This document shows positions 1 through 37,900 of a DNA stretch of 56,702 nt, piece by piece. The stretch is from a virus (Duplodnaviria > Caudoviricetes): IMG/VR virus record IMGVR_UViG_3300035670_000255, positions 1 to 56,702 of that record; one strand, given 5' to 3'. Both the position numbers and the translations under genes were made by a program. How positions within the stretch are numbered: position 1 is the stretch's first letter; the number at the start of each line of letters is the position of its first letter. The notes beneath the pieces are model-generated. The model was not told where the DNA came from. It searched no databases and saw only the letters and a list, made by a program, of their open reading frames with translations.

Positions 1-655
1 CCAATTTATCAGCAGTTAAGGTGCCATCGGGTGCGGCTGTAGCATTATCCGTTATGGTTGCATTTGTTTTAGTCCAAGCCGCATTATCAAACGCCTCAGA
101 CTGCAGCACCAAATTAGTCCGCACCTTCTCGATGTACCCATCAGGACCTACGCGAGTAGCAGTATCATTACTCCGAGTAAAAGCAAGCTGACCACTAGTA
201 GTCAAAGGACGCTCCGAGTACACAATACTCGTCTTGTACAGGCTCGGTACCATAACCAAGCTAGCCTTAGCGTAGTACTTGTCCAACAATGGAGCAATCG
301 CATCCTTAGCGCAGTCCGCAGCCTCAATAGTCGCTGCGTTAGTTTGTCCGTACTCATTGATGTACGCCCACACATCCTCGATGTCGGTGGGGCCTGCGAT
401 GTACGCAGTAAGGCTTCCGCTAGTTACGCTTACCTCAGTAAACAATCCATAGATGGTGGTGCCAGCATAAACGAACTCAGCCGTCAGGTCGTCTCCTAAG
501 ACGCTGACAGCAGTAACGTAGGAGTCCTCCTCTGCAACGAGTACTCGGTAGTACTCACCCTGAATGTAAAGCTGGTCTGTTGAGATAGTGCGCACCCCGT
601 TCTGCCCAAATCCTTGGAGCTGATAGTTGACGGGGTTATTTAGATTCGTGTACAT
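1..655 (-). CDS. Head-spike/fibre-like virion protein, N-terminal part (runs off window start; not in ORF track)
   Basis: Hand translation from ATG at 655: MYTNLNNPVNYQLQGFGQNG...QLAFTRSNDTATRVGPDGYIEKVRTNLVLQSEAFDNAAWTKTNATITDNATAAPDGTLTADKL, open to the edge; the FTR..ATR / RTNL..SE.F...W / APDGT.TADKL motifs are typical of phage spike/fibre proteins. Confidence 0.75.
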   Translation of the reverse strand, partial: MYTNLNNPVNYQLQGFGQNGVRTISTDQLYIQGEYYRVLVAEEDSYVTAVSVLGDDLTAEFVYAGTTIYGLFTEVSVTSGSLTAYIAGPTDIEDVWAYINEYGQTNAATIEAADCAKDAIAPLLDKYYAKASLVMVPSLYKTSIVYSERPLTTSGQLAFTRSNDTATRVGPDGYIEKVRTNLVLQSEAFDNAAWTKTNATITDNATAAPDGTLTADKL

Positions 656-658
656 AGT

Positions 659-1444
659 TTATTGGTTCTTGTATTTCCAAATGTATCCATACTTCGTTTT
701 GCACTCACCCCTACAGGCTTTTGCAATTGCTGATTTTTGCGTTCTAGATTTAAATGGTGTGGCCTCTACAGATTTATATTCTGCTACAAAGTTACCCTTT
801 ATATCAAATTGAAGAACTGGCTTTTCTTTGTCTCTATTTTTAGCATTAAACGCATTAACTACTTCATCTACAGTAATATCTGTAGACTCATACGAGAAAA
901 ATCGTTTTGAGCACAATTTTGTTTTTCCAAGCAGTACACTTAGTAGGTTGCCATAACCTATGCCAGTTGACTTAGATGCTGAAACAACGCTATCAAAACG
1001 AGATATTACATTCCCATTCTTATCGTATTCTAAGACAGCTTTTCTTTTCCCAACAGCCGAAGCTTCTTTTTGCTCTTCGGTAAATGCTCTTTTTTGAAAA
1101 ACGCACCCGCCAGAGTTGCCATTCATCAAAGTAAATCCAAAAGTCTTAAATAGTGATATGTAGTGCTTCTCCCAAAATGAAAATTCAGATTTTAAAACTC
1201 TATCAATCTCTACTATCTCTATATTTTCTTTATTGTTCAAAGCATCAAGTAACCAAATATCCTTCTTGGACATCTTAAGTTTGTTCTTTGAAAGGTATTT
1301 AGCTCTTGACTTATGAACTCTCAGTCTCCTATTTAAAGGATTTATTGTTCCACCAACATACAGATTGTCGTTACCAGACCTGCTAAGTAGGTAAACGCTA
1401 GCTAGGGCGATTTCATTTGTGTGTATGTTGTCTACGTAGTTCAA
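659..1444 (-). mobile_element. Free-standing GIY-YIG homing endonuclease with NUMOD1-like C-terminal repeats
   Basis: VYLL...LYVGGT..RLRVH..E..YI nuclease core; two V.qyD.nGn.i..f.S repeats; AT-rich relative to flanks; start codon uncertain (TTG). Confidence 0.8.
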
Positions 1445-1478
1445 GGCAAGAAAAAAGTGAAAGTGAAATACTACGTTG

Positions 1479-1486
1479 CAAATATA
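1479..1486 (-). promoter_or_regulatory. Bacteroidota-type -7 promoter box (TATATTTG)
   Basis: TAnnTTTG consensus just downstream of the portal stop and upstream of the endonuclease gene. Confidence 0.6.
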
Positions 1487-1489
1487 GGT

Positions 1490-3931
1490 TTATTCTCCAA
1501 GCAAAATTTTCATCACATCATCCTCCTGCTCTTCGGTAAGCTCAGGACGCTGTCCCTGACGCTGAGAGATAAGCTTGCTCTGCTCAATGGCCTGCTTCTT
1601 AACTCTCTCGTCTTTCCTGTCTTCTTTCTCTTGCTCAAGCTGTGCCTTCTGAGAAATAGCCTCCTGCTGCTGCATCGTGCTCATTCCAAGCTTCAATCGC
1701 TCAAGCTCCATCTTCAACGCGTACTCCTTGTCAAGGAGTTGCATCTTAGCGTTCTTGTCTGCTTCAATCTTAGCAAGCTCTACTTGGCTCTCAGCACCAA
1801 GCTCAGCAATCTTGCCCTGTGAGGCAGCCTGCGTAGTTTGGATATTCATCTGAGCCTGCATCTGAGAGTTCTGAGCTGCCTGCTCTTGCTTCTCTCTGAT
1901 GCGCTTCTTACGACGTACAACCAACAGCCTTTCAGCTTGGTCAACATCACGCAGCTGACGGATAGCGATAGCATCCTCAAGGTTAATCTCTCCAATAGAA
2001 AGAGCAGCCTGAATGTTAGCCTCCAAGTAAGCTCTGTCTCGGTCATTCATCTCCGTAACGACTCTAACGCCAAAGTTGTACATCGGCAAGTCCTTGAATG
2101 AAGACAGCACCTTCATATTCTCAATGCCAACAGCATTCTCGTATGCCTTAAACACTACGGATTGCGGAGGGAGAATCTGAAGACACTTAACGATGTCTTC
2201 GCACACCTTACGGAACAGAACCATCGAAGCGTTTGTGATGTCGTACAAAGCGTTGTTAGAGGCTTGAATAGCCTGCTCTCTTACGCCAACAAGTTGCTCT
2301 CCCTTCGGAGACGTTCCGTCCATTACCTCGTTGATACCCGTTGCATCACGAATCATACGAAGGTTGTGGTTGTAGATACCAATCAACTCGTTGATGTTTC
2401 TGATGCTGTTATCCAGTGGGCGGATTGGAGGATTCTGGAAGCTTCCGTCAGGATTCTTCGAGCGGTAGTAGAAGATACCCGTCTGCTCGTAGATGTCCTG
2501 AATCTCCAGTGGCTGTAGTTCGCCACCACGCCCAAGCTGTACGTTCTCAAGTCCTTCGATGTCTACAATCAGTCCATCAGGCTTAGCCTTAGCGATGGCC
2601 TGTTGCATCTTGAGGTGCGTAATCTGAAGCTGGTCTGCAAACGTAATAACGCTGCTAACCAAGCTCTTAGGAATCATACGACGCAGGTTAACAGCTACTG
2701 CGCTGTAGGAGAAGCGAGCACGGCTAAGGTCGTGGATGTTCTTTGGGATGTTCTTCTTAAGGCCGTAGTCAAACAGATAGTCTGTACCTACAATGTACTT
2801 ACCTCCGTAGATAGTAGCGTTCTGCATATACACTGGCTCACGGTCGTATACCGACTGAGATGGGGCCTTGTACTCGTATCCCTTGTAGTAGAATCCTACG
2901 TTACCAAAGCGAGATTCTTTCTTCTCAAAGACAATATCGTCTACGCTAAGGAACTCAAACTCCATCATAGCGATGGTGTACTGGTCGTATCCGTACTGGT
3001 AAACACCAAGAGCTGAATCGTAGTAGGACTCAGAAAGGCGGTCTGGGTTGTTGCCAAAGGTGTTAGCAACGCTCTGCGCCATCTGCTTGTACTGGTCTTC
3101 AGTGAACTGATTGCCAGCCATACGCTTGAGCTCCTGAATAGAGATGTTTCTGATGTGACCCATATAGGTGCAGTCACTCAGATTCGGGTCGTCAGTAATG
3201 CTGTGGATGAAGTACGCGGGGTCAACGTAGTCTTCTTTGATTCCGTAATTCGGGTCGTTGTTGCGCTTCACCACAGCCATACCAACGGTAACGAGGTCTT
3301 CTACGTTACGGCGGTAAATCTTCTCGTCAAAGTCATTCCAGTTAAGGGTCAGACGAGTAGCAATCTGAGCAGCAATCTCCGCTTGTGTTTTGATGCTGGT
3401 CTCAAAGAAAATCTCAGCCTCCTCGGTGGTCTCTGGAAGAGCGTCTGGGTCAACAGCTGTTTTAAGGCCAAGAGCCTTAGCCTCAGCGAACATCTCTTTG
3501 TTCTTAATTGCTGCCTTAATCTTAGCACGTTCTCTATCCTTCTCCGTTTGAGAAAGAGGGTCAATGGCCTCTACATTAGGAAAGGGCGCAGTGCCTAGAA
3601 TCTTGTTGACAACAATCTTTACAAACTTCGGAATGATGGGCACAGGTGACCAGTCAATAGACAGAAGTGCTCCGTCTCCGTTGTTTGGGTCAAGCGATGT
3701 AAGAATCTGCTTGTAGATGTTTGTGTCTTGGGTGCCGTTGGCATAATCCCTGTTAATCTGGAATTCCTTCCAGCGCACATTGTATAAAGAGCCTGTGGTA
3801 TTGACACCACCCCATTGAGAGTATACGCCTTTCGCATATTGCAACCCGTATTCTTTCGTGACCTTTCTGGCGTGATTTGCCAAAGGGTCAGGGAAGTTTA
3901 CGTTGCTACTCACATAATTGTAATCCGACAT
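1490..3931 (-). CDS. Portal protein
   Basis: ~810 aa, adjacent to terminase, coiled-coil Q/E-rich C-terminus; start moved to MSDYNY (ATG 3931) because a promoter box overlaps the ORF-track start. Confidence 0.85.
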   Translation of the reverse strand: MSDYNYVSSNVNFPDPLANHARKVTKEYGLQYAKGVYSQWGGVNTTGSLYNVRWKEFQINRDYANGTQDTNIYKQILTSLDPNNGDGALLSIDWSPVPIIPKFVKIVVNKILGTAPFPNVEAIDPLSQTEKDRERAKIKAAIKNKEMFAEAKALGLKTAVDPDALPETTEEAEIFFETSIKTQAEIAAQIATRLTLNWNDFDEKIYRRNVEDLVTVGMAVVKRNNDPNYGIKEDYVDPAYFIHSITDDPNLSDCTYMGHIRNISIQELKRMAGNQFTEDQYKQMAQSVANTFGNNPDRLSESYYDSALGVYQYGYDQYTIAMMEFEFLSVDDIVFEKKESRFGNVGFYYKGYEYKAPSQSVYDREPVYMQNATIYGGKYIVGTDYLFDYGLKKNIPKNIHDLSRARFSYSAVAVNLRRMIPKSLVSSVITFADQLQITHLKMQQAIAKAKPDGLIVDIEGLENVQLGRGGELQPLEIQDIYEQTGIFYYRSKNPDGSFQNPPIRPLDNSIRNINELIGIYNHNLRMIRDATGINEVMDGTSPKGEQLVGVREQAIQASNNALYDITNASMVLFRKVCEDIVKCLQILPPQSVVFKAYENAVGIENMKVLSSFKDLPMYNFGVRVVTEMNDRDRAYLEANIQAALSIGEINLEDAIAIRQLRDVDQAERLLVVRRKKRIREKQEQAAQNSQMQAQMNIQTTQAASQGKIAELGAESQVELAKIEADKNAKMQLLDKEYALKMELERLKLGMSTMQQQEAISQKAQLEQEKEDRKDERVKKQAIEQSKLISQRQGQRPELTEEQEDDVMKILLGE

Positions 3932-3952
3932 ACTAAAATATCCGTTATAGTG

Positions 3953-3960
3953 CAAATATA
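3953..3960 (-). promoter_or_regulatory. Bacteroidota-type -7 promoter box (TATATTTG) for portal
   Basis: Consensus match between the terminase stop and the portal ATG. Confidence 0.65.
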
Positions 3961-3969
3961 CAGATATAT

Positions 3970-6090
3970 CTAACGCCTGATTTCTCGACCCTTACGAAAA
4001 AACACTTTAGAGTTAAAGTCCGTCTTTGGCTTCTCCGCTGCAACTTTCTGAGCAGCAAGCAAAGCAAGCCCTGAAGAGATGGTCAAGTCAAACTTTGTTC
4101 GGTCGTCAATCTTGAAGTTAATCCAGTCCTCAAGAGTTCTGTTGAAGTACATATTGCTAAACTTACCAGTCTCATCATTGATGCCTACGTGATGGTGGAT
4201 GTACGACTCAATTGCCTGAGCGTGAGCCTGAATCACATCTTGGCTGTTGGATGGGATACCCTTTGTCTTTACGTTTACGTGTGACGATGTAGACGAAAGG
4301 TGAGCAGGTCTACCCATCAGATAACCATCGTAACCTCTTGATTCAAAGTATCTTACGATTCCGTATTTATTGTTTTCTACCAGCAGAGGAAACCCATAAA
4401 ACACTGAAGCCATCAGAACATCCTCATAGAATATCTTAGCCAGCGGAGGACGTGATGCATACTCAGCGACAAACATATTGGATGGGTACTGCATATTAAA
4501 CTTGGTAATCAAGTGACAGGCTCCCTTTGATGAGCGTCCATCCGTTGTAGCGTCAAGGTCATATGAGTCAACTCCACCGCAACCAAGAAAGTCGTTGGGT
4601 GCTACTTTCTGACCTCGCTCTACCTGTATCTTATTGCGTAGCTCTACAGGAGGCATCCACGTGATGCGCCATCTTCCGTTAACGTCTGGCTTAAAATGTA
4701 CCTTAGAGTCCTGCACTCCGTTCTCCCAATGGAAGTTTCCAATCACCACTGGATTAGGGAACAGCTCATCGTTGTATTGAATTTGCTCGTAAATCTTGGT
4801 GATGTTAAACAGCGATGCCTTCGTAGAGTCACGGAAGGCTTCATCCTCAGTAAACGGGAACTGACGAATAACCTCGTTGAGTTCGTAGCTGTTATGCTGC
4901 TGGCCCTTTCGCTCGTTCTTCAAGAACGTCCTAGCTCCTATCGAAGTAAACGTCCCATCTTCAGTAAGTACTGGCTTCTCTGGGTCGTCGACAATGGGCA
5001 TCCCGTACTGGTCAAAGAATCCTTCAAGCGCCTCATACGCAGGGATGAAGATTTTATACAGGCCACTCTTGGTGCGTCCGTTTTCGTTGCGCTCGTTTGG
5101 ATTTGAGTCGTAGTATAGGCTTCTGAACTCTCGGCCACCTCTGTCGAGCGGATTGACTGTTGAGCCAATCATTGCCTTGCCAATAACCCTACGACCTACA
5201 ATAAGACAGGTTCGATGGATGCGCCATATCTCTCTTACGTCAATACCTTTCTCGTACTTACCAGCCTCATCAAAGAACAGCCTATGGGTCTTACTTCCGT
5301 CATAGGCGTTGATTACCGTGTTCTTCCAGTTGATGATGGTATCAAGTGCCTCTCCACGAGTAGCCGTCTTATTGTTCTTGGTAATCCTCTTAGATGGCTC
5401 ACGGAACGCAAGCTCCATACGAGGGTTGGTGGTACCATCAATAACTGGAGCGAAGAAGAATGGGTAGCTCTTAAACACAGGAACAACCTTAGAGCCAAAC
5501 ACAGCTTCCTGAGCATCGGCACCTGTCTTGCTCATAATGCCGAGTAACTTATCCTTTACCTGAGAGCCCTCGTCCACCAAAGTGGCTGCGCTCATATTGG
5601 TATACCCAGAGCGTCGGCACTTGGTGTAAATCTGTCCAAGACATCGTGGGTCAGCCTCACAAGCCGCCAAGTGAATGAACAGCTTTCTCTGGAAGTCTAG
5701 ATAGCTTGGGTACCCGATGTCAATCTTACTCCACTGGATGAACATATAGTGGTGTCCCGTGATGTATGTAGGTACTCCGTTGTTGTAAAACCAAACGCCA
5801 TCTCTCCTTCTCCTGAACTCCTCCTCGATGTATGGGCCCCATCGGAGCTGAAACTCACGAGGAGACTCATACCAGTCGTCCATTGATTTAATCTGGTTGA
5901 GTTCTCTTGGTAACTCTTGACGTTGCCAGCGTTGGTTCTCCTTCTTGAGGTTATGGAACAGGATATCCTTCTTTGCTGGTTTAGCTGGTAGCTGAATGAA
6001 TAGAGATTCAAGCTCAATAACCTCTCCCTCTGTATCATTAGGGCAGATATTGATTACCTCCTTGTTCTTTATCATCTTCAGTCCCGCCAT
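3970..6090 (-). CDS. terL: Terminase large subunit
   Basis: Walker A-like KCRRSGYT, Walker B LFFDEAGK, coupling motif GST, RNase H-like nuclease GGVDSYD...FDLTIS. Confidence 0.92.
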   Translation of the reverse strand: MAGLKMIKNKEVINICPNDTEGEVIELESLFIQLPAKPAKKDILFHNLKKENQRWQRQELPRELNQIKSMDDWYESPREFQLRWGPYIEEEFRRRRDGVWFYNNGVPTYITGHHYMFIQWSKIDIGYPSYLDFQRKLFIHLAACEADPRCLGQIYTKCRRSGYTNMSAATLVDEGSQVKDKLLGIMSKTGADAQEAVFGSKVVPVFKSYPFFFAPVIDGTTNPRMELAFREPSKRITKNNKTATRGEALDTIINWKNTVINAYDGSKTHRLFFDEAGKYEKGIDVREIWRIHRTCLIVGRRVIGKAMIGSTVNPLDRGGREFRSLYYDSNPNERNENGRTKSGLYKIFIPAYEALEGFFDQYGMPIVDDPEKPVLTEDGTFTSIGARTFLKNERKGQQHNSYELNEVIRQFPFTEDEAFRDSTKASLFNITKIYEQIQYNDELFPNPVVIGNFHWENGVQDSKVHFKPDVNGRWRITWMPPVELRNKIQVERGQKVAPNDFLGCGGVDSYDLDATTDGRSSKGACHLITKFNMQYPSNMFVAEYASRPPLAKIFYEDVLMASVFYGFPLLVENNKYGIVRYFESRGYDGYLMGRPAHLSSTSSHVNVKTKGIPSNSQDVIQAHAQAIESYIHHHVGINDETGKFSNMYFNRTLEDWINFKIDDRTKFDLTISSGLALLAAQKVAAEKPKTDFNSKVFFRKGREIRR

Positions 6091-6093
6091 AGC

Positions 6094-6390
6094 CTATCGT
6101 CTTGCGTTGCGCTCAGCAAATCCAGCCTTAAAGTCTCTGTCTTCCTCAATACCTCCAGTCTCACGAAGGGTACGCACCATCTCCTCCAGCTTCTGACGCT
6201 CTTGGATTAGCTCCCTAGCGTCAACAGCTGTCTGCTTGATGGATTGGAGTTCGGCCTTGCGAGCCGAGCCATTGATATCTGGGTCAACTGGCTTCTTAAT
6301 CTCCTCAATCATATTGTTGATGGCTATCTCCATAGACTCAAGGAGCCTTTGGGCAGCGTCAACTGTGGTGAACTTAGCCTTTATAGCCAT
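6094..6390 (-). CDS. Putative terminase small subunit
   Basis: Small helical protein directly upstream of terL, ending GFAERNARR. Confidence 0.5.
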   Translation of the reverse strand: MAIKAKFTTVDAAQRLLESMEIAINNMIEEIKKPVDPDINGSARKAELQSIKQTAVDARELIQERQKLEEMVRTLRETGGIEEDRDFKAGFAERNARR

Positions 6391-6955
6391 AATCAACAGC
6401 TAGTAAGTGGTCAACATTCATACGCCAAAGCTTTTTGCCGTCAATCTCCATCTCGTAGTCCGCATCTTTAGCGAAATACACGATGTCACCCTTCTTTACC
6501 CCAATCTCAGCCAACGCTTCCGAGTCGCAATGGATGCGTCCGTAGCGGTTTGGCTCTGGGGTAAGGTTAACAAGCTCAAGTATAGAGCTTTTTAGGTGGT
6601 GAGGCTGAGGAATTGGCTCAACAAGTACCCAGTTAGTAAGCACCTGAAGTCCATCTTCGTTTTTAAAGGCGTAGCACTGGGTAGAAAAGCCACCGTCTGG
6701 GTGGTATCTAACCATAAATGTTTCCTTCTCTAGCTGATTTCCTTCGTCCATCGTTACGTGGTGATGAACATAAAGGATATCCCCGACCTTGACAGATGTT
6801 TTGTACTTCAATGGAACAGAAACTACTTCACCATAGGGGATGCGATGCTCAAACTCGTTGAACTTCGTTTCGATGTAGATTTCTACGTCTCCTATCTTTT
6901 TGGTGTCTTGTACTTTCTTGGGGATTTTTATAATGAATTTATCTAGGCAGTCCAT
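6374..6955 (-). CDS. GroES-like co-chaperonin (tandem GroES-type folds)
   Basis: GEVVSVP...VKVGDILYVHH and WVLVEPI...GVKKGDIVYF...YEMEIDGKKLWRM resemble Cpn10 motifs. Confidence 0.7.
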   Translation of the reverse strand: MDCLDKFIIKIPKKVQDTKKIGDVEIYIETKFNEFEHRIPYGEVVSVPLKYKTSVKVGDILYVHHHVTMDEGNQLEKETFMVRYHPDGGFSTQCYAFKNEDGLQVLTNWVLVEPIPQPHHLKSSILELVNLTPEPNRYGRIHCDSEALAEIGVKKGDIVYFAKDADYEMEIDGKKLWRMNVDHLLAVDYGYKG

Positions 6956-8890: not shown

Positions 8891-9041
8891 TGATTACCTT
8901 AAACGGCATCTCTAGCGCTGCTCCTTCGTGGGGAACAAACTCTCCTTTGTGGGGCATAAGGTAATAGCGACCCTTGTCGTTCATCCAATGGTAGCCATCA
9001 GGGGCTTTTACCATTACCTTACCTTTCTTCTTTGCTTTCAC
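8859..9041 (-). CDS. Small basic hypothetical protein
   Basis: VKAPDGYHWM...YYLM motif; start uncertain. Confidence 0.6.
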   Translation of the reverse strand: MKAKKKGKVMVKAPDGYHWMNDKGRYYLMPHKGEFVPHEGAALEMPFKVITTHPNQAKRQ

Positions 9042-9153
9042 CGAGTAGTCTGTTTACAAGTTGGTGGTTTACAGCACCAATAGATGAGCGTCCTGCGCTA
9101 ACTCTTTTAATGCCGCGTGTACTTGTTCCGCGCTTTTTTGCTGACTTTGCCAT
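9019..9153 (-). CDS. 44-aa basic protein (not in ORF track)
   Basis: MAKSAKKRGTSTRGIKRVSAGRSSIGAVNHQLVNRLLGESKEER; starts 1 nt after the upstream stop. Confidence 0.55.
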   Translation of the reverse strand: MAKSAKKRGTSTRGIKRVSAGRSSIGAVNHQLVNRLLGESKEER

Positions 9154-9154
9154 C

Positions 9155-9259
9155 TTAACTACCGCAGGCCTCGCAGTCCTCTGGATTGTCGATGTTGCAC
9201 GTAGGTTGATTGGCTTCCTCTAGCTCGTTGAGCCAGTTGTCAAAGTTGTTGTCGCTCAT
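9155..9259 (-). CDS. 34-aa acidic CxxC peptide resembling the C-terminal tail of ribonucleotide reductase alpha (not in ORF track)
   Basis: MSDNNFDNWLNELEEANQPTCNIDNPEDCEACGS; ATGA overlap with the upstream gene; fills the gap exactly. Confidence 0.75.
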   Translation of the reverse strand: MSDNNFDNWLNELEEANQPTCNIDNPEDCEACGS

Positions 9260-9501
9260 TTCTTTGCTCTGTTTTTGGATGCGGAAATCATTTTACGTTC
9301 TGAGTGGTCGAAGTCCATACCATCACCATTCCCATAGGTGCCCATACGTCTGTTTACCTTATTAAGGAAGGCTCGGTACTTCTTTCGTTCTTCGGAAGAG
9401 TGGTATTCTTTGTTGTACGCATTCTTCTTCTCGCGAGCCTCTGGGTTCTCACGGAAGTACTTAGCTGATTTGGACAGCTCTCTTTTGTTAATCTTCGCCA
9501 T
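9256..9501 (-). CDS. Small basic protein with degenerate HNH-like C-terminus
   Basis: GNGDGMDFDH...S.S.NRA motif; K/R-rich. Confidence 0.6.
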   Translation of the reverse strand: MAKINKRELSKSAKYFRENPEAREKKNAYNKEYHSSEERKKYRAFLNKVNRRMGTYGNGDGMDFDHSERKMISASKNRAKK

Positions 9502-9928
9502 AATGTCCTCTTTCTCTTAGGTATTTAGCAGCACGGTCTACAACGTCGGGGTGGTCTTTTAGGAATGCAATGGAGCTGTTACACTTCTTGCACAGCAAAC
9601 CACGAAACTCATCGGTCTTGTGGTTGTGGTCGATGGCGCAGGTGTCGAGATGGATGTTGTCTAAACATATAGCACACTTACCTTCCTGCTCTAAGAAGGT
9701 GTCCTTCACTTGACGTGGAGTAACCTTCCTTCGTTTGCACCTTCTGTTAAAGGTCCATTCGGGCGACGACTTCGCTGCCTTCTCTGGATTCTCTTTCTTC
9801 CAGACCTTGTACTTCTCGTAAGAGCAGGCCTTGCATTGGAGTGCTCGCTTTTCGTTATGCCGTCCGTAGATTCGATAGCCTTCTATTGACTTCTCGACTC
9901 CGCAGACATTGCAAGCGAACAACTCCAT
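9488..9928 (-). mobile_element. Endonuclease VII-family (His-Me) free-standing endonuclease
   Basis: QEGKCAIC...IDHNHKTDEFRGLLCKKCN signature; N-terminal CxxC...CKAC zinc module. Confidence 0.88.
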
Positions 9929-10482: not shown

Positions 10483-11106
10483 TTAAAAGTAATCGAACTT
10501 AAAGCCTTTAGTTGATGATTGATTGCCCTTAAGTACAGTCGTCACAGTTGATTTTGATATACCAATAGCGTCTGCTGCCTCTTTTGCTGTTGCCCAAATG
10601 AATATTACATTGCCGTCCATATCCATTTGAACTACAGCTCTAGACCTAGGGTTGTTGTATCCAGACACATCTCCTAACCAAGTAGTTGGGTTAATTTTAT
10701 GAGCCTCACTCATCTTACGACGAGTTTCTTCTGATGGTATTCTGCCAATAGACTTTGCTCGTATCTTTTCTACAATATCCGCATAATTAGGTAGGTCTGT
10801 AATCTTTGGAGGCTTGTCTCCGCCTTTACTAGTATTGACTAACTTCTTTCCTTTAGATAAAGCTAAAGAGATTAACTCAACCTCTTTTTCATAGCACTCT
10901 GTTTCAGTTCCCTGAAAAATAATCCTGTGCCTAAAGTCAAAGTCAATCTTACGAAGCCATCGAGACTTGCGTAGGTTATATGATTTATTCTTCTTGTTTG
11001 TTGCTTCGTGTACGTGATTCTTCAACCTTTGCTCTGGTTCAATAGATACTCCAATGTATCTAATTCCAGTAGCGTCAGCTAATACGTAGACAAAACAATT
11101 ACCCAT
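10483..11106 (-). mobile_element. Free-standing GIY-YIG homing endonuclease (NUMOD3 + NUMOD1)
   Basis: FVYVL...RYIGVS..R...H; SEETRRKMSEAH (NUMOD3); VVQMDMDGN...AADAIG (NUMOD1/HTH); probable start MGNCF overlapping the endolysin stop. Confidence 0.85.
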
Positions 11107-11593
11107 AAATCTCCTTGAACTTGGCTGCGGTGTACGGAATGTACTTGGCCTTACCTCCAGTAAAAACAGCAATCAGAATCTGTTTACGGTTTGTTCCTTT
11201 ACGATAACCGACGTGCACCCAGTTCATATCGCCAGCTCCGTTAGAACCCTCAGCGATGAGTTGGTCAAACTCCAAGTTGTCTTTAATAAAGTTGAATACA
11301 TCCTTGTTCTTTACACCATTACCGTGACCATCTTGGTCTAGGTCAAGAGCCTTTCCGTTGTTATGGTCAGAGGTAGCACTACCACCAATCGCCTTGTTTA
11401 AGGCAGCAGAGCGGTACCCAGATGAAATGTAAATAGGCACACCAAAGTGTTCACGCACCTTGTCAAACACTTCCTCACAGATAGTCTTAAGGTTCTCGAG
11501 GTGCTCAGCAGTTGGAGAGTTGTCAATACCCTTGCGCTTGGCAGTATCACTACGAGTTACTTCAGCCAGCGACACATACTTAGATAGTTTCAT
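11099..11593 (-). CDS. Endolysin, peptidase M15 family
   Basis: ISSGYRS..LN..IGG...SDH..GKALD...WVHVGY zinc peptidase motifs. Confidence 0.9.
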   Translation of the reverse strand: MKLSKYVSLAEVTRSDTAKRKGIDNSPTAEHLENLKTICEEVFDKVREHFGVPIYISSGYRSAALNKAIGGSATSDHNNGKALDLDQDGHGNGVKNKDVFNFIKDNLEFDQLIAEGSNGAGDMNWVHVGYRKGTNRKQILIAVFTGGKAKYIPYTAAKFKEIYG

Positions 11594-11615
11594 AATCGTC
11601 TACGTTTTAGAGTTA

Positions 11616-11623
11616 CAAAAATA
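11616..11623 (-). promoter_or_regulatory. Bacteroidota-type -7 box (TATTTTTG) for the endolysin-terminase arm
   Basis: Consensus match 22 nt upstream of the endolysin ATG. Confidence 0.6.
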
Positions 11624-11690
11624 ATCAATTCTGTTTTACCCCCTTATTGGTCATTAACAATGAAATGTTGAATACTCATACTCCAAACTA

Positions 11691-11721
11691 TTGAAAGTAT
11701 CATTTTTCTCTTGTAACTTTG
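11691..11721 (+). promoter_or_regulatory. Bacteroidota-type promoter TTG-N20-TAACTTTG with no ORF downstream
   Basis: -33 TTG at 11691, -7 TAACTTTG at 11714-11721. Confidence 0.65.
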
Positions 11722-11726
11722 CCGCT

Positions 11727-11940
11727 AAAGGTCCTAGCGCTAGCACAACCAACAGAACACTAAAGCTGACGGGCGGGCCTCCCACCCCGCCAAGTCAGCA
11801 GCTACACAACAGCTAGCAAGTGAGCTTTGACCAGTAACACCTGCCAAGGGTCAAAGCGAACGCGTCATAATAGGATAGACTTGTGCTGGCACGAAGACTA
11901 TTCTAGCTGTTCATCTTCTTCTCACCTCTCTTTTTTTTGC
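11727..11940 (+). ncRNA. Candidate structured non-coding RNA
   Basis: Own promoter, GC-rich hairpins, two long-range helices, ends in a T-run; no ORF. Confidence 0.5.
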
Positions 11941-12136
11941 AACGTGCTCTATTTCACATAGTTGTCTACGTTTCTTTTTTAGGTAAACTTAGCTGTCACT
12001 CCCCCAACGAGAGAGAATAACAGCACATTTACAAATCTACACAACCTAACGCAGCCAACTTCCTAGACAACATCCAACACACCAGAACACATCCAACACT
12101 AAATAGAGCACTCAACAATGTTCAGCTAGCACACGT

Positions 12137-12562
12137 CATAGCCAGAAACTATCAGTCGCAAGTGCACACTGATAAAAGGAACCACCAGATATAAGTATGG
12201 GCGGGATTATATATACTATACAACGAATCGACAACCAAACCGAAACGAAATCACAGACCCAAGCCCCCTACACGTACACGAAATTCTCAGAACATTCCAG
12301 CGTTTTACTACCTACTCCTACCCATAGATTCTAACTATTAAGTAGCCCCTTGGTCATAGTTTTTTCCTATCAAGTACCTAGTTAGCGATAGGAAATAACT
12401 ATCGGTGAGAAGTTCTCTCTGATGTAAGTGCTTGATAATCAGGGAGAACAATCCCACTCTAAAATCCCCTCATAGCCAAAACCTATCAACAACTACCAAA
12501 ACCACGCGCCTACGAGACAGCCATCATAGCCAAATCCTATCGGTCGATAGTCAAAACCTATC
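12137..12562. repeat. Array of seven ATAG-N7-CTAT palindromic boxes
   Basis: 17-mers at 12137, 12323, 12355, 12387, 12471, 12525, 12546. Confidence 0.8.
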
Positions 12563-12643
12563 GGGGTCGGAGTTATATTCGCGCCTCTACGTGTGGGTAT
12601 GACGCGCAGGTGACGGGCAGGTAGCGCAGGTAGGCGCCGCGCG

Positions 12644-12717
12644 ATAGTCAATAGTAATTCTAAACGAAATTTATTTGTTTCTCAAATAAATTTCTTAAGA
12701 ATTATTCTATTGACTAT
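12644..12717. repeat. Long AT-rich imperfect inverted repeat
   Basis: ATAGTCAATAG/CTATTGACTAT outer arms and GAAATTTATTTG/CAAATAAATTTC inner arms. Confidence 0.85.
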
Positions 12718-12734
12718 TTCCTACGAGAAAGTCG

Positions 12735-12742
12735 TACTTTTG
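12735..12742 (+). promoter_or_regulatory. Early promoter -7 box (TACTTTTG)
   Basis: Consensus match ~30 nt upstream of the first plus-arm ORF. Confidence 0.6.
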
Positions 12743-12771
12743 CCTCGAATCCCACCAAAAATCGTGTTCCG

Positions 12772-13056
12772 ATGGCTAAAGTAAAAAGAAATACTAACTC
12801 TACCTATACTCACGTTAGTAGTCCAAAGATTAGTAGTGTATATCAGGAGAATATATACTATACTCATAAGTTCACTAAGTTCAAAACTAAGTTTCGTACT
12901 AAGTGCTTTGAGACAGGTTCTATACTTGATGCAGGTACTTTTGTTGCCTTTGATACTTTGAGTCGCAAAGTATTTTCTCTTAATAGTTCTACTTATGCTT
13001 ACTACTTGACCTCTATTAGTCGGTCATTTAATGGTCTTAATTGGTCAAGAGTATAA
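12772..13056 (+). CDS. Hypothetical early protein
   Basis: 94-aa ORF after the promoter; strong T-ending codon bias like neighbouring early genes. Confidence 0.6.
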   Translation: MAKVKRNTNSTYTHVSSPKISSVYQENIYYTHKFTKFKTKFRTKCFETGSILDAGTFVAFDTLSRKVFSLNSSTYAYYLTSISRSFNGLNWSRV

Positions 13057-13129
13057 AGTTTAAGGTGTAGGATACTACCTTTGAAGTGTATCTATTGTTT
13101 TCTTTTTTTTTTTGTAATTCCTAATTGTT

Positions 13130-31533: not shown

Positions 31534-31980
31534 TTACCTTAGCCATCTAGTTACGTATCGAGTAGCCAAGATAAATAATAAAAGTGTTATAACAAGTATA
31601 AGCAGTGCGTCTTTTGCTTTGTCAAACCAACTTCTTGGACTTGGACGGAACTCAACAATAGGAACACGCACCTCTACGTCTCTTGTAATAGCGTAGGGCT
31701 TGACCTTTGTCTTTACAATGTACTTGTCTTGATACTTGATAATAGTTGTTTGAATAGTATCGTTCTCAACAACTACACTATCCTTCCCAGAAAAAGAAAC
31801 TGTATCCGCATATACAATCTCTTTTGTTACAACAGTGTCCGTTTTTACTATCACTCTTTCTTGTAGCAACGAAGGATTTAGCTGCGTTGCTCGATTCAAG
31901 TGCCAGTTCGCTCGCTTGTTGGCCGAGCACCCCACCATCAGAGTGCTCAGCAACAGGAAGACTATGCTCCATTTTTTCAT
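31534..31980 (-). CDS. Putative unimolecular spanin (lipoprotein with C-terminal TM)
   Basis: Signal peptide with lipobox MVGC; beta-rich DTV repeats; C-terminal hydrophobic helix followed by basic tail. Confidence 0.6.
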   Translation of the reverse strand: MKKWSIVFLLLSTLMVGCSANKRANWHLNRATQLNPSLLQERVIVKTDTVVTKEIVYADTVSFSGKDSVVVENDTIQTTIIKYQDKYIVKTKVKPYAITRDVEVRVPIVEFRPSPRSWFDKAKDALLILVITLLLFILATRYVTRWLR

Positions 31981-34900
31981 TGTTCTTTTTGTGTGTATAG
32001 CTTCCTGACAACAGCGTAGAACTCTTCGTTAGGACGGAATCCAACTCCTCTGAGGTCGCGCATAACATCGTTAAACTCCTCAGGCTCAAGCTTTCCGAAC
32101 TTCTCGTAGAAGACTCTTGCTGCCTCACTCTGCGTGTCTGCAAATCTAATACTCATCAGGCTCTTGTCGGCATCAGAAGAAGCTATAGTATAGAAATATT
32201 TACGTCCTAAACGCTCTCTCTTCTCTGGCTTGACATCAGACAGAATCTTACCCAACTCCTCTTGGTAGCGCTTGCCATTCTTGTCAAAGTGGCCTTGCTC
32301 CTTGTGCTTCTTAGCAAGAGCTTTAATCTTCTCGCTAATAATGAAGTCCTCAGTAGATTCTTCGAGTTTAATCTCCCGCTCTACGCCCTGCTTCTTAATG
32401 TAGTCTCTCCAATTAGGGTTGGTAGAACGAACAAAGACCTTCTGAGCATTCTCCTTGATGCCTTTGAGCTCACGAGCAACTCGGTCTTCAGCCTTCTCCT
32501 CACGTTGCTTCTCAGACAAGTCCACGTCCTGTACGTTCATCACATCCGTAGCGGCACGAGCAGCCAAGTCAAGAACACCATACGCTACGCCAACAAGGAA
32601 GTTGGTGGTAGGATTGGTGATGATTGACTCTACGCCAGCCTTCAAGCGTGGTGCTGAGATATCTGGAATGTACTCTGACTCAGATGCCTTAGCGATAGCC
32701 TTGTAGAAAAACTCCACCTTATCGCTAGCCCTGCTCTCAGCGTATGGCTTAACCTGTCCGAAGATGTACTCAGGGACGATGGTAGCGTTTCTAAACGAGT
32801 CGTAGTTGAAGACAGACTTGGCAATCACCGAAGCGACTGGTATTCTGTTCATTAGGTCAAACGACTTGTCAATGCCGGGCACGAAGAATGGAAGCCCGTC
32901 GGCAGCATTCTCCCAAGCAAGACGAATCTCATCTTCGCTAAACTTCTTCGGCTTGCCGTTGATGGTAGAAGCCCAAGACTGAGCCAGCATCTCCAAAGGC
33001 ACCGTCAGAGGAAGCAACGCTTGTGGCTTCTTCAGTCGGATGTACTTGCGGTTTCCGTTCTCATCCTTAGTTGGTAACAGAATAACGTGGTATCTGTAGC
33101 GCATATAAGGGTCGATGTCGTCATAGTCGTCTCCGTAAGTAAGGATGTTGTAGAACACAAGTCCCATAATACCAGTAGCGTACTGGAAGAACTTGGCCGC
33201 AAACTTCTCTGGGTTGTCCTTGATTCCGTTAAACGTAGACATCGTGGCTTGGAAGGCTACGTTGAGGTATGGTGCAATAGCATCAAGGTCCTTAGTTAGC
33301 TTACCACCCTTGCTGAAGTCAACGATGTTACGAGCCTCAGCAGCAGCCATAAACTTAATCTTTTCGATTCCGTCTTTGGTTTTAGCCAAGTCAGGGTACT
33401 GCTCCTTGAGGTTCTTAATCATACGGCTGTACACCGCCAATCGGATACCAATTTCAAAGGTCTCACCAGTAAAGGCGATGCCCTTAGCAACCTTATCCCA
33501 ACGCTTAGCTAGGGTATACTCGAGTTTGTTCTTGTACTTCTCACGGAATCGGTACTCAGGACGGAACTCTTGGCTCATAAACGACATACCGCCACCGTGG
33601 GCAAAGTAGTCACGAACAAGGTCTTGGTCTGTCGCCTTAGAGTAGATACCCGTAGCGTAGTCCTTAGCCATCTTCAGCAGTGCGATAGGTAGGAAGGAAT
33701 CCTTGCCGTACACACGTCCACGAGCCAACACAACAGCCAATGATTCAGGTACCACCAGACCGAAGCCGAAGGTGATGTTGTATCCAGTAGCGAAGATGCG
33801 AAGGATTGGAGCTCCAGAAAGGGCGGACAGCACCTTCTTAGTTCTACTGCCAGCACCGAAGTAGCTTCTGTTGGTGTCGTTCCATTGCTCCACGAGGTCG
33901 TTGCGCAACTGGAAAGCACGAGTCTTACCCTTCTCCTTGTAGAAGACGTTGGTAAAGCCCTTGTCGGCATTTGCTACACGAGCATTGCCGTACTGGTCTG
34001 TTGCTGTTCTTCCATCGGGGAGCTCAATGTAGTTGGCGTTACGAGCGAAGTCAGCAGTATCAGGAGTAATCTCTGAAGCAAGCTCTGCATTTGCAAGGTT
34101 CTGGAAGCGCTTAGCCTCTGCCGACTTGTAGGCAAGAGACAGCAACATACGAGAGTCCATAAGCAGGTTACCTTCGCTACCCTCTTGAATGGCCTTTAGT
34201 ACGTCCTGCTTAAGCCCAGTTCCAGCTCTTGCAAATACCTCATCGTCAAGGTCTTCGAAGATTTTCTCAATGAACTTACGTGGCTCGTAGTCATCCTTAG
34301 AGAAGCGCTCGTAGGTAGCCTCATCAATAAGACCATTAACCTCGTAGCTCTTTAGGATTCCACGGAACTCAGTGAAGTAAGCATCGGCACGCATATTCAG
34401 CTTACCGAACTGAGTGGCTCCAAGCTTACGCTCCATAGCGGTGATGGCTTGGATAGCCTGTTCTCCGTTGAGACCTTTCGGGTGCTTAGGACGCTCAGCG
34501 TAATCAGACGCAATCTCTTTGAGTTTATCGCGCTGCTCACGAATATTCATCTTATCGTTCTCAAGTTCGCTGATGAACTTCTTGTCTGGACTCTTTCTAC
34601 TTTTCTCGCCCTTAATGAGTTCATCAATAGCCTTGATGTCAATACGCATCTTCTCCTCGAACGCATCAAGGTTTACCTCAGCTGTCTCCTTGCGCTTGTC
34701 CCAGTTAGAATCAATCTGGATAACACGACGCATAAAGATGATTTGGTCAAGGGCCTCTACCTCACCACGAGACAAGTCCTTGTAGATTTTCTTCTCCGCA
34801 CGATTGAACAAGTCTGTTGCATTCGCTTGGGCACCAGCACGAAGAGACATAAGGTTCTCTACGTAGTCAAGACCACCATCTACAAGAGCGTCACGGATAT

Positions 34901-37900
34901 CTGCTTGACGGTCAAGCCAAGCATTTTTAGAGAGAACACCCTTCTGTACTGCATTGAACAGCTTCATACGCTCAGCGTACTCCTTGTCCGAATCGTAAGA
35001 TGCCTTAGCTACCTTCTCAAGAGCAGCGTCTTCTGCGCTTTCCTCCAAAGGAGACAGCTTGATACGCTTAGAGAATTGAACAGCTGACTTAGTGAACTGA
35101 GTGGGGCTGTTTAGGTTAGTGAAGATTTTAGGTATAAAGATTGTTTCGCCTCTCATGCCGTATGCATTAAACATACTTATGAACTCCTCAACGTACTCAT
35201 CTTCACTCATTCCGAGTTCGTCAGCCTTTTCCTCAATTTCTGGAAGCGTGATGACTTCACGTCCGCCAAAGTCTTGAAGAATGCGCTGTTCGATTTCTTC
35301 TGGCTCAAGGCTCTCACCTTCTGAATCCATAAGCGCAATGTACTTCTCGTACTGCTTATTTGGTATAGCGTAAAGCGTACCCAATGATGCATAGTGGTCA
35401 GACACAAGTGTCTCATCGTGAACCTTAAGGGCAAACTCACGACCAACCTTCTTGACGTAGGCCAAGTTGTTTAGAGCAATACGGCGTGCTCCATCGGTAC
35501 GCTCATCAAACTTGTGCGACTTCTCCTGAATGTCAAGGGCTGTCTTGTACTCCTTAGAGTCCTTGTCGGCAGCCTTTAGTATCTCATTGACCTTGTTAGA
35601 GAAAGCTTCATAAAGAGGGTGGCTCTTGTTTTCTCCAGCAGCATTGAACTCAAGCGCAGCATACTCGATGTCTGGGAATATTTTTGGAATAAGCTCCACT
35701 GTTCTAGCAAACACTGGGAACGCATTTAGATATGGCGGTACGTTTTGGTACTTAAATACATTAGACTCATATCCTACGGTAATATTGTTTGCTGTAGGGT
35801 TGTACGTCAAATTAAGAGTATAGGTGTCCTTGAGTCCTTTTTGCTTTAGATTGGTCTGTTTGCCAATACCAACTCCGCCATCAAACTCATCTGGCACAAC
35901 GTCAAGACCCATATAGTCTTTCGGGAACTGCCATACATAGTCGAATGAAAGGGTTCTGTCATAAAGCTTAGAGTCAGTCATCACCTTGCTGCCCATATCG
36001 GCAATGGTCATCTCAAGGTCAGCAATAGAAACAGCTCCCTTAGATTCGATTTCCTTCAGGCGCTTCTCGAGATTGTTTTCAGTATTGCTGGCTAGTTTGA
36101 TGTAATCATCAAGAACTGTTCTTGGCTCTGAGAAGAAATCATCTACAGATACTTCTTCGCTAACTTCAGCCTCAAATACCTTGTATCCGCCAAGACCATT
36201 AACTGGCTTTACCTTAAACACAGGCATAGAAGGCTGATAGCCAATCTCGTCAAGTATTGACTCAAGTGACTCTTTGAAGTCTGGGAATAAATTATCGGCA
36301 AGACCATCCATCATATAGTTGGGGTCCTTGAATGTCTTGATGGCAAGCTTGCCTACAACCATTTCAATATTTTCACTCAGGGCAGCTAATGCTTCATCCT
36401 GTTCCTCAGAGAGTGGGCTTCCAGTTCTTGCGTCGACTATTTCGCCTCCGTCAACTTTAAACTTGTGAAATGAATCATCGGTTGCTGATTCAACATCGCC
36501 TTTCTTGCGAACATAAAGGATACCTTCTTTAGAATCAGCCTCAATCTTATCAAGCAGTTCTTGACTAAGCTTGCTTACGATTGGCCTTTCCGTCTTAATA
36601 TATGTGTCAACATATTCTGAATTAGGAATAAGCGCGACTAGTTTTCCGAATATCGGATTATTCTTTAGTGTTGACTCAGTTTTTTTAATATTTAAAATCC
36701 CTATATTCGACATCCTAACGGCCAAGGATATATCGTTTATAGCGTTGGCTTTGAGTTGATTAAGAGCATCAATGCTCATCTCGAAAGAGCCATACTCGCC
36801 ATCATACCCACCCGGGTTGTAAGGAGAGCTAAACGCCTGATAAGTATACTCTTTACTGTCTAAAAAACTATGGAATATCTTAGCATAAAGAATAGCGTCT
36901 GGATTAAGAGTAATAGAGCCAGTCTTGAAAACAGTGGACTGTTCATCCATCACGTTGGCCATCTCTACAGCATCAGCAGAGTTTTCCTTGCTGTCAACCT
37001 TCGCCTTTAGTGAAGCGATGATGTTGTTCTTGGCCTCCTCAATTGTTTTCGCCTTGTAGTCACTGAACGCAGGAACCTCGCTAGCGCTCTTGAGCAAATT
37101 AGCAAAGTCATCAAGACGTGAGCCAACAGTAAACTCCTGAATGGTCAAAGGCGTAGGACGCAACTGTTCCTCCAGTTCTGGCTTAGCAGCATCAACAACC
37201 TGTTTGACAGAGTTAATCTCAGCTAAGTTATCATCGAAGTTGTCACGGATGTAAGTCTGGAACGCATCAGCCAAAGCCGTGTATGCAAGAGACTCACGAA
37301 TCTCCTTGTCGTTCAAATCAACAGTCTCGTAGACCTTCTTTCCCTTTGTCTTGCCAAACAGACCTTCTGCCTGAGCAATATCAAGCATCTGCTGGTACTC
37401 ATCAATTGCCATATTGACAATCGGGTCAGAGCCGCTCTTACCACGCACAATGCTTGACATAATCGTGTTGAAGGCATCAGCGCTGTTCTCCTTCAGCATC
37501 TCGATAAACACTGCGCTATATCCGTAGATTGATTGGTCTACGTTTCTTGCGGCAGCGTTGATTACGATGTACTTGTCGGACTTTAGGTCCTTAGGAATGT
37601 TGTAGCCTTTCTTGCGGAACCCTTCAACAGCATCAACTGGCATCATCTGGTCGGTAATCGTTCCAGTGCGCAAATCGGGGAAGTTAAAGAATCCAACCTT
37701 AGAGGCGTAGTTGAACTTCTTGTCGTTGACAACAACGAACGGAAGCTTCATCTTAACCGACAGCTTTTCAATCAGCGGCAAGACATTTGACAGGGCGGGG
37801 TTCAGGTTTTTGATTTCGGCAGCAGGAACAATGTCTTCGTTGATGTCGACACGAACCTCTGCGTCTTCCGACATAAAGCGTCGGATAATGTTTTGCTTCT

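Follow-up and report, generated by a model that had tools for sequence, protein, structure and literature searches.

A predicted phage micro-protein made of an acidic helix and a free-standing tail like that of the ribonucleotide reductase subunit NrdA

In class I ribonucleotide reductases (RNRs), the disordered C-terminal end of the alpha subunit carries a pair of cysteines, which is reduced by thioredoxin or glutaredoxin and in turn re-reduces the disulfide of the active site, as described in three papers (PMC9669993, PMC5704485, PMC4078304). In the split class II enzyme NrdJa+b, the reductive C-terminal domain lies on a gene of its own, nrdJb (PMC5704485). Here, we describe a gene of 34 codons (the micro-ORF, for open reading frame) whose product resembles the tail of NrdA, the class Ia RNR alpha subunit. 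It lies in IMG/VR virus record IMGVR_UViG_3300035670_000255, which was analysed over its whole length of 56,702 nt (56.7 kb; hereafter the window) and has an estimated completeness of 97%.

The micro-protein resembles NrdJb in being an RNR reductive tail with its own gene, and 22 of the 128 members of its family combine a four-cysteine cluster with the terminal cysteine pair, by which they recall the class II RNR tails with their zinc finger and cysteine pair. However, NrdJb is part of a folded zinc domain of 150 to 220 amino acids (aa) and its gene lies beside that of the catalytic subunit, whereas the phage peptide has only 34 aa with three cysteines, shows no detectable sequence relation to NrdJb and is encoded in a genome without an RNR gene, and thus without an adjacent RNR subunit; its longest relative has 123 aa. 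Thioredoxin, glutaredoxin and NrdH likewise use a CxxC dithiol to feed electrons to RNR, but the peptide resembles a redoxin substrate and not a redoxin, as it has no Pfam match and its AlphaFold2 model consists of one helix and a loop, with no thioredoxin fold. Yeast Sml1 is a small protein that, in work attributed to Zhang and colleagues in 2007, reportedly acts at the site used by the C-terminal tail of R1. RNR inhibitors of the Sml1/Spd1 type bind R1 and prevent its regeneration through the tail. In contrast to the micro-protein, Sml1 is eukaryotic and not virus-encoded, and it is not known to copy the tail or to have a CxxC. The T4 protein RIII is a small cytoplasmic lysis regulator, to which the micro-protein may be likened as a small soluble protein encoded with lysis genes; we know of no small lysis regulator that carries an enzyme-tail motif. 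None of the NrdA tail, NrdJb and Sml1 is a virus-encoded free tail in an RNR-less genome, and no description of a phage-encoded RNR-tail peptide was found in the full-text library searched, from which subscription journals are largely absent.

The micro-ORF (translation MSDNNFDNWLNELEEANQPTCNIDNPEDCEACGS) has exactly the frame, start and stop that an earlier note, made from the DNA letters alone, had given it, and the same note had correctly seen that its start overlaps the stop of the upstream gene and that the next gene begins 1 nt after its own stop (Table 1). The ATGA overlap suggests, as far as the sequence can tell, that translation of the micro-ORF is coupled to that of the upstream gene. 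In the related record L006, an ATGA overlap is likewise present, but with another upstream gene (5660..6346, versus 6343..6447 for the micro-ORF). The upstream gene of the window, a member of phrog_6437, is kept in relatives both with and without the micro-ORF. The tail-coding DNA pattern is met a single time in the window and never in 100 shuffles of it. The exact 34-aa peptide is present in the ESM Atlas, and some gene-calling pipelines therefore do call this micro-ORF.

Relatives of the window were gathered by means of their terminase, independently of the tail motif, and syntenic orthologues of the micro-ORF were found in five of them, with 94% aa identity in L022 and 76% in L006, L007, L009 and L010. 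The comparison with L022 gave 14 synonymous differences over 16.5 sites, which is saturated, and 2 non-synonymous differences over 82.5 sites. The ratio of non-synonymous to synonymous substitution rates (dN/dS) was 0.01-0.22 in the orthologue pairs for which dS was computable. The seven population variants listed for the micro-ORF in public metagenome contigs all fall in third codon positions; six are synonymous and the seventh is N17K, a residue found in L022. A 513-nt contig from an RNA-seq library (run X18) covers the ORF of a relative with ~88% identity. This is a weak hint of transcription at most, as a contig does not demonstrate it and DNA can occur in such libraries. The micro-ORF is a genuine gene under strong purifying selection. 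The earlier note had proposed to check dN/dS across related phages and had counted a lack of conservation of the ORF or its CxxCGS end as evidence against its proposal; the ORF and this end are conserved, in the orthologues and in the alignment and profile search described below.

The C-terminal half of the peptide (window peptide, TCNIDNPEDCEACGS; Bacteroidia NrdA of L327, SCSLDNPEDCEACGS) shares with NrdA a 17-residue C-terminal motif, Q-x-[ST]-C-[SN]-[IL]-[DE]-N-P-acidic-x-C-E-[AM]-C-G-S, and thus has the C-terminal ..C-x7-C-x-x-C-G-S of class Ia alpha tails. According to PDB sequences, the C-terminal end of human RRM1 is CSLENRDECLMCGS and its chain 3hnc_A ends in MVCSLENRDECLMCGS, so that the human ending quoted in the earlier note was right; yeast Rnr1 bears the tail motif CAIDNPEACEMC, and its IACAIDNPEACEMC stops one residue short of the end of the protein. 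The remainder of a class Ia alpha subunit has no counterpart in the micro-protein: neither the ten-stranded catalytic barrel (PF02867) nor an N-terminal all-alpha domain or ATP cone was found in the 34-aa protein, which has no Pfam match, whereas scores of 680-727 bits are reached by true NrdAs that bear this tail.

IMG/VR was scanned with a degenerate DNA pattern for [DE]-N-x-[DE]-[DE]-C-x-x-C-G-S-stop, which gave at least 120 loci with 121 frames; the counts of short ORFs, carrier records and cassettes given throughout rest on these listed matches. Among them, 35 are long ORFs (at least 250 aa), 81 are short (32-91 aa from the first ATG) and 5 are cut by the end of the locus, and the pattern met just RNR-alpha ends and small ORFs. 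The same scan of cellular DNA, with one genome per prokaryote species, listed at least 120 loci, which are essentially NrdA ends alone, from Bacteroidota and Bdellovibrionota; no small ORF of the phage architecture was found among the 120 cellular loci listed. The long viral ORFs and the cellular matches together provided 103 complete RNR alpha frames of at least 700 aa, and the ATP-cone, RNR_lgN and RNR_lgC domains were present in all five long ORFs tested. At positions that the pattern had left free, the micro-proteins and the cellular NrdAs among the matches listed agree as well: the first cysteine is present in 65 of 66 and 68 of 83, respectively, I or L at position -12 in 60/66 and 67/83, and proline at -9 in 55/66 and 66/83, and a glutamine upstream of the first cysteine (at -3 from it), also pattern-free, is common to both.

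Two alignments were built from these data, A1 from the 63 non-redundant short ORFs among the matches listed and A2 from 72 NrdAs. When compared by hhalign, the last 21 columns of both align (Prob 94.8, E 5.3e-8), a score that is inflated because A1 and A2 were collected with one motif. The fairest test was therefore a six-frame search with the A1 profile in 201 Bacteroidia genomes picked without regard to the motif. The profile matched 82 of the 201 genomes (a tally that counts one unpublished genome, G232), with a single match in 81 of the 82, at the ends of open frames of NrdA length; the exceptions to intact NrdA ends are G152, where the nrdA end is frameshifted, and G095, with duplicated nrdA 3' ends. 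In G051, for instance, the sole match is the NrdA end (E 5.5e-8). The 30 best places of this search are all NrdA-like tails with the first cysteine and the x7 spacing, most of them of the form Q-x-[ST]-C-S-L-D-N-P-[DE]-x-C-E-[AM]-C-G-S, and no micro-ORF of the phage type was found in the 201 genomes by the profile. Judged from these comparisons, the likeness of the tail is specific to NrdA, and the resemblance to host-type NrdA put forward in the earlier note is borne out by its match to Bacteroidia tails in both the hhalign and the genome search. What that note had said would speak against its proposal, a lack of conservation of the ORF or of similarity to host NrdA tails, was not observed, because the ORF is conserved and its tail matches Bacteroidia NrdA.

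The micro-proteins form a family of their own. The A1 alignment has six invariant positions (C21, N25, C29, C32, G33 and S34), and L13, Q18 and P19 are at least 90% conserved; C21, L13, Q18 and P19 had been left free by the search pattern. An hmmsearch with the A1 profile against 1.84 billion representatives gave 128 matches at E<=1e-3, 30 of them at E<=1e-10, so that the family comprises 128 clusters at 50% identity. Their lengths are 32-123 aa in 127 cases, the exception being a spurious 729-aa protein, and a few longer 'fusions' resemble stop read-through under other genetic codes or merged neighbours. C-x5-9-C-x-x-C is found in 125 of the 128 representatives (x7 in 69, x6 in 53), a G-S terminus in 115 and the helix motif [FW]xx[FW][ILV]xx[LM] in 119. 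The family can thus be defined as proteins of 32-123 aa with this helix motif, usually E-Q-P, and a C-terminal C-x6/7-C-x-x-C-[GS]-[SGA], all of which the window peptide has. The N-terminal cluster added in some members, which has at least four cysteines, suggests by its pattern a small metal site preceding the helix and tail; the extension is of the types CxC..CxC, CxxC..CxxC and CKCGGNCKC and is seen in P0001, P0004, P0024, P0071, P0096, P0111, P0128, L106, L107, L117 and L129.

No family match was found in Pfam or PHROGs, and the ESM Atlas holds solely unnamed clusters of 33-42 aa peptides, with 191, 71 and 67 members. A phmmer search of the 34-aa peptide against PDB sequences gave only a chance match (E 1.1). 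In 50,697 GenBank phage records, the best tblastn match of three family members had an E-value of 0.1, although the low-complexity filter may mask matches, and blastn of the 2.1-kb micro-ORF region against the same records gave none.

The AlphaFold2 model obtained with A1 shows a helix over residues 3-15 followed by a compact loop (mean predicted local distance difference test score, pLDDT, 82.7). The helix is amphipathic, acidic and specific to the family. It has no general NrdA counterpart, and a few NrdAs (e.g. L322) show a similarly spaced hydrophobic pattern upstream of the tail, where the profile alignment reaches ~42 columns. The peptide has nine acidic and no basic residues, and inspection of its 34-aa sequence made no transmembrane (TM) segment, signal peptide or hydrophobic stretch evident. 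With Foldseek, no PDB structure was matched by the model at E<=0.001, 34 residues being too short for this to be informative. By its sequence, the product is a cytoplasmic, very acidic micro-protein in two parts, a helix and a free-standing NrdA-like tail.

The terminase of the window is ~40% identical to those of its closest cultured relatives, which are phages of Flavobacterium, Cellulophaga, Tenacibaculum and Maribacter (86 of 89 records), and in another carrier lineage, of the L090 type and unrelated to the first, the closest relatives of a helicase are from phages of Maribacter and Cellulophaga (8 of 9 records). The likely hosts of these two tested lineages are Flavobacteriia, within the Bacteroidia whose NrdA bears this tail. 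Searches of the window for RNR alpha (PF02867) and RNR beta (PF00268) were negative, in agreement with the earlier note, which had seen no RNR gene in this genome, and so were those for thioredoxin, glutaredoxin, tyrosine integrase and serine recombinase. RNR alpha was searched in 50 viral records (48 short-ORF records found by the pattern, L006 and L022), and PF02867 was present in that of L102 alone. It is thus absent from all 49 listed true carrier records, including the 10 with at least 90% completeness, and no tyrosine integrase was found in these 49 records or the 10 near-complete ones among them. Because many records are fragments, these absences are indications and not proofs. A separate micro-ORF was found in none of the 34 listed viral records with a tail-bearing RNR, in which the profile finds the RNR's own end alone.

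The L102 record, which is the same as that of L321, belongs to an AT-rich phage with an E. coli-type nrdA (ending ..CIDGACTI) and nrdB. Some 1.5 kb downstream of the RNR, at L102:14175-14291 (+), an ATG-less frame of 38 codons, overlapping the end of a 438-aa ORF, carries the eukaryote-type RNR tail ..TCSLDNPDECLMCGS. This RNR-type piece, distinct from the micro-ORF family, may have been left behind when an RNR gene was replaced.

In NrdA of the eukaryote-like class Ia type, the reduced tail swings to the active site and, following every turnover, restores the catalytic disulfide to its reduced form. We tentatively read the phage peptide as a free tail that enters the thiol relay between thioredoxin and NrdA of the host. 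Host thioredoxin would reduce the peptide and the reduced peptide would reach the active site of host NrdA, where it would either donate electrons in trans or compete with the tail of NrdA itself. Docking affinity, for which a tethered tail has no use, would come from the helix. The parts of this reading that we infer are which partners are bound, whether the effect is activation or inhibition, and when it takes place. As Bacteroidia and humans share much more of the tail than its two cysteines, the whole motif is probably read by a partner, and because thioredoxins are undemanding about the sequence of their substrates, the entrance of the RNR active site is a likelier reader than thioredoxin. 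The host RNR/redoxin relay is the most probable target because the peptides keep the whole motif under purifying selection. A scheme in which the phage shuts off the host enzyme and uses its own is disfavoured, since the carriers have no phage RNR. The separately encoded domain of NrdJa+b (PMC5704485) is counted as a precedent for this reading.

Several observations weigh against a role in the host relay. Among the matches listed, the residue at position -13 is mostly N in the micro-proteins (52 of 66) and S in the cellular NrdAs (80 of 83), and the C-x6-C spacing occurs in 53 of the 128 family representatives, whereas all 30 NrdA tails with the first cysteine at the best places of the genome search have x7. 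Many Flavobacteriaceae NrdA tails lack this first cysteine, which is invariant in the micro-proteins, and the additional N-terminal cysteines (at least four in 22/128 members) hint at metal binding. The genomic context counts against such a role as well. In the window, the micro-ORF is part of a late operon, in which it follows the endolysin gene and precedes that of the terminase. Of 27 close terminase relatives spanning both flanks, 5 have it and 22 do not, which shows it to be dispensable. A lysis gene of the endolysin, holin or spanin type lies within 1.5 kb in 61 of the 81 listed loci (54 of 72 unique peptides). Finally, reconstitution in trans of the separated tail domain of a class II RNR failed in vitro (PMC5704485). 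Other differences from NrdA are that the dipeptide of the micro-protein CxxC is polar (EA, EN, DS, TS) and almost never begins with I, L or V, whereas that of NrdA often has one of these first, and that barrel, ATP cone and linker are missing, tail and helix being the entire protein. The Flavobacteriaceae tails without the first cysteine read ..KS[KR]ENPDDCLMCGS, and the cysteine is retained in other orders of Bacteroidia.

A factor for the supply of deoxynucleoside triphosphates (dNTPs) would be expected in an early or middle replication module, and the late or lysis context therefore fits such a factor poorly; together with the failed class II reconstitution, this disfavours a simple booster. 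Of the interpretation in the earlier note, in which the peptide would boost host dNTP synthesis in trans or act as a decoy, the conserved and NrdA-specific tail in a phage without RNR stands, whereas simple dNTP boosting agrees poorly with the late, lysis-associated and accessory context. The slot occupied by the micro-ORF is, in the other terminase relatives, empty or filled with other cargo such as a lipoprotein of 228-231 aa, and the micro-ORF is therefore an accessory gene in a variable slot. In L006, it is flanked by a lipoprotein and a methyltransferase gene. The slot lipoproteins of L006 (5660-6346, +) and L027 (6106-6801, +) have a predicted signal peptide, a Cys lipobox and several further cysteines.

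The same neighbourhood leads to the main alternative, namely that the micro-protein is a redox factor of the lysis cassette. It would then act in the cytoplasm together with the holin, endolysin or spanin machinery, and RNR would not be its target. We consider this unlikely, if clearly deserving of attention. The NrdA-like tail would be a good thioredoxin substrate, and its thiol/disulfide state would therefore report the reducing capacity of the cell or regulate a lysis protein. Besides the frequency of nearby lysis genes given above, 38 of the 81 listed loci have two or more kinds of them within 1.5 kb, and the association recurs with three cassette genes (M15, Amidase_2 and DUF5675) and three peptide subfamilies. 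The recurrent order in other lineages is an endolysin (M15 or Amidase_2) or DUF5675 protein, TM proteins, which include a phrog_3427 holin and a weakly Rz-like protein, the micro-ORF, a lipoprotein with a C-terminal TM segment, whose start is overlapped by the micro-ORF, and replication genes; in the window, the gene likewise lies downstream of the endolysin in the late operon. On the other hand, much of this synteny may be inherited among kindred phages, the micro-ORF is convergent with the cassette and not co-oriented in six loci (L115, L132, L135, L143, L171 and L194), and the window lineage places it in the variable slot, beside the lipoprotein and methyltransferase. Variable slots near lysis genes commonly carry unrelated accessory genes. 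The micro-protein has no PHROG lysis-family match and, on inspection, none of the TM or lipoprotein features of holins, antiholins and spanins, with which it shares the neighbourhood alone. This alternative also leaves unexplained why the whole 17-residue NrdA motif is retained and not just the CxxC.

Some neighbours in these cassettes are of interest in themselves. The protein L093:1603-1923 (+), from a cluster of 12 loci, is a secreted protein of ~105 aa with a signal peptide and without cysteines. Its match to the thioredoxin fold (PF00085, E 5e-6) covers the C-terminal half of that fold, and its gene is found within the lysis cassettes of many carrier phages, where it sometimes precedes the micro-ORF; P0029 is a merged call of this Cys-less thioredoxin-fold gene and the micro-ORF. 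Neighbours that had been labelled 'RusA-like', 'SSB-like' and 'u-spanin-like' by sequence reading have no Pfam or PHROG match.

A variant that joins both ideas is conceivable, although improbable. The peptide would remain a dithiol and restrain lysis for as long as the infected cell is able to reduce RNR and, once phage DNA synthesis drains the reducing supply, would become oxidised and release it, so that the timing of the burst would be coupled to the exhaustion of dNTP capacity. As the peptide copies the NrdA tail, it would in this case compete with RNR for thioredoxin electrons.

Somewhat more credible than such a gauge, yet still rather improbable, is a peptide binding zinc or iron, in which the cysteines coordinate the metal and the likeness to NrdA is convergent or a functionless relic. 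The odd number of cysteines, three of them invariant, the four-cysteine extensions (CxC..CxC or CxxC..CxxC) of the 22 relatives, the tolerance of both the C-x6 and the C-x7 spacing and the compact region that AlphaFold2 predicts past the helix (pLDDT 85-88 for residues 11-30) would all suit such a site. A bare metal site, however, needs none of the other tail residues (Q, I/L, D/E, N, P, the acidic pair and G-S), which are conserved as in NrdA, and neither a zinc-finger match in Pfam or PHROGs nor a structural match in the PDB was obtained.

The micro-ORF might also be part of a phage attachment site (attP), i.e. a replacement 3' end of nrdA carried by a temperate element that integrates there, which we regard as highly improbable. 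In its favour, G095 has two further copies of the final 25-66 codons of nrdA, downstream of this gene and around inserted DNA, which shows that nrdA 3' ends do get copied by insertions. However, each peptide begins at a start codon of its own, a helix foreign to NrdA is conserved and the length range is tight, no phage-type copy was found in the 201 Bacteroidia genomes, and no integrase was found in the listed carriers or recombinase in the window, as described above; on the grounds of the missing integrase, the own starts, the helix and the missing genomic copy, this explanation is largely refuted. An nrdA 3' end copied by an insertion is nevertheless a plausible origin of the micro-protein family. 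The G095 locus itself (L353, G095:C69:15500-24000, ~455-6016) has the nrdA end (..NMANISCSLDNPEGCEACGS) repeated twice downstream of the intact gene, and the repeats flank two inserts that are almost identical and have one 165-aa ORF apiece. This resembles the outcome of a mobile element integrating repeatedly at the nrdA 3' end and duplicating its target.

The detached tail of a split RNR of the phage itself, for which NrdJa+b shows that separately encoded tails exist (PMC5704485), is refuted by the lack of RNR alpha and beta in the window and of RNR alpha in the 49 listed carriers, and a chance ORF is excluded by the strong purifying selection and the 128 family clusters, which leaves this last pair of explanations with hardly any likelihood.

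The features of the locus are listed in Table 1. The minus-strand operon of the window comprises, in this order, the M15 endolysin gene, which is its first recognisable gene, those of the GIY-YIG protein and endonuclease VII, small ORFs, the micro-ORF, and the genes of a tail-like protein, the terminase and an 821-aa protein. The GIY-YIG and endonuclease VII genes are likely of the homing type, and the endolysin gene shares its last 74 nt with the longest GIY-YIG frame. Between this late operon and the plus-strand genes that start from 13130, ~1.5 kb (11600-13100) contain short ORFs alone; an origin or a control region for divergent transcription may lie here. Elsewhere, the window has two ORFs of very large size, with 3170 aa (31977-41489, -) and 1631 aa (43820-48715, -). 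The basic ORF that follows the micro-ORF has no Pfam or PHROG match.

Table 1. Coordinates of the micro-protein gene, its predicted parts and its neighbours in the window
Feature	Position	Strand	Basis and remarks
Micro-protein gene	9155..9259	-	ORF list; ATG 9259-9257, 34 codons, TAA 9157-9155
Predicted family-specific amphipathic acidic helix, residues 3-15 (F6, W9, L10, L13)	9215..9253	-	AlphaFold2 model
NrdA-tail-like segment, residues 18-34, Q-P-T-C-N-I-D-N-P-E-D-C-E-A-C-G-S	9158..9208	-	hhalign, profile searches
Stop/start overlap ATGA with upstream gene	9256..9259	-	Upstream TGA at 9258-9256
Upstream 81-aa gene, phrog_6437, function not assigned	9256..9501	-	PHROGs
Downstream 44-aa basic ORF	9019..9153	-	ORF list; start at 9153, 1 nt past micro-ORF stop
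Endonuclease VII gene	9488-9928	-	Endonuclease_7, PF02945
GIY-YIG gene with NUMOD-like domain	10483-11172	-	PF01541
M15-type endolysin, phrog_894	11099..11593	-	PHROGs, E 2.7e-38; 1.9 kb upstream of micro-ORF

The family is abundant in uncultured viral contigs, yet absent from Pfam and PHROGs and without a significant tblastn match in the cultured-phage collection searched, and it therefore illustrates how much functional 'dark matter' phage micro-ORFs can contain. If the micro-protein were a lysis-linked redox switch, it would represent a new kind of lysis regulator. If, as we tentatively propose, it acts on the thioredoxin-RNR relay of the host, this would be the first virus that encodes just the mobile redox tail of a host enzyme it lacks, a minimal means, of 34 residues, by which a phage would tune the rate-limiting step of DNA-precursor supply. 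It would then also be a natural tail acting in trans, useful in RNR enzymology for studying how the tail gains access to the active site and which of its residues are recognised there or by thioredoxin.

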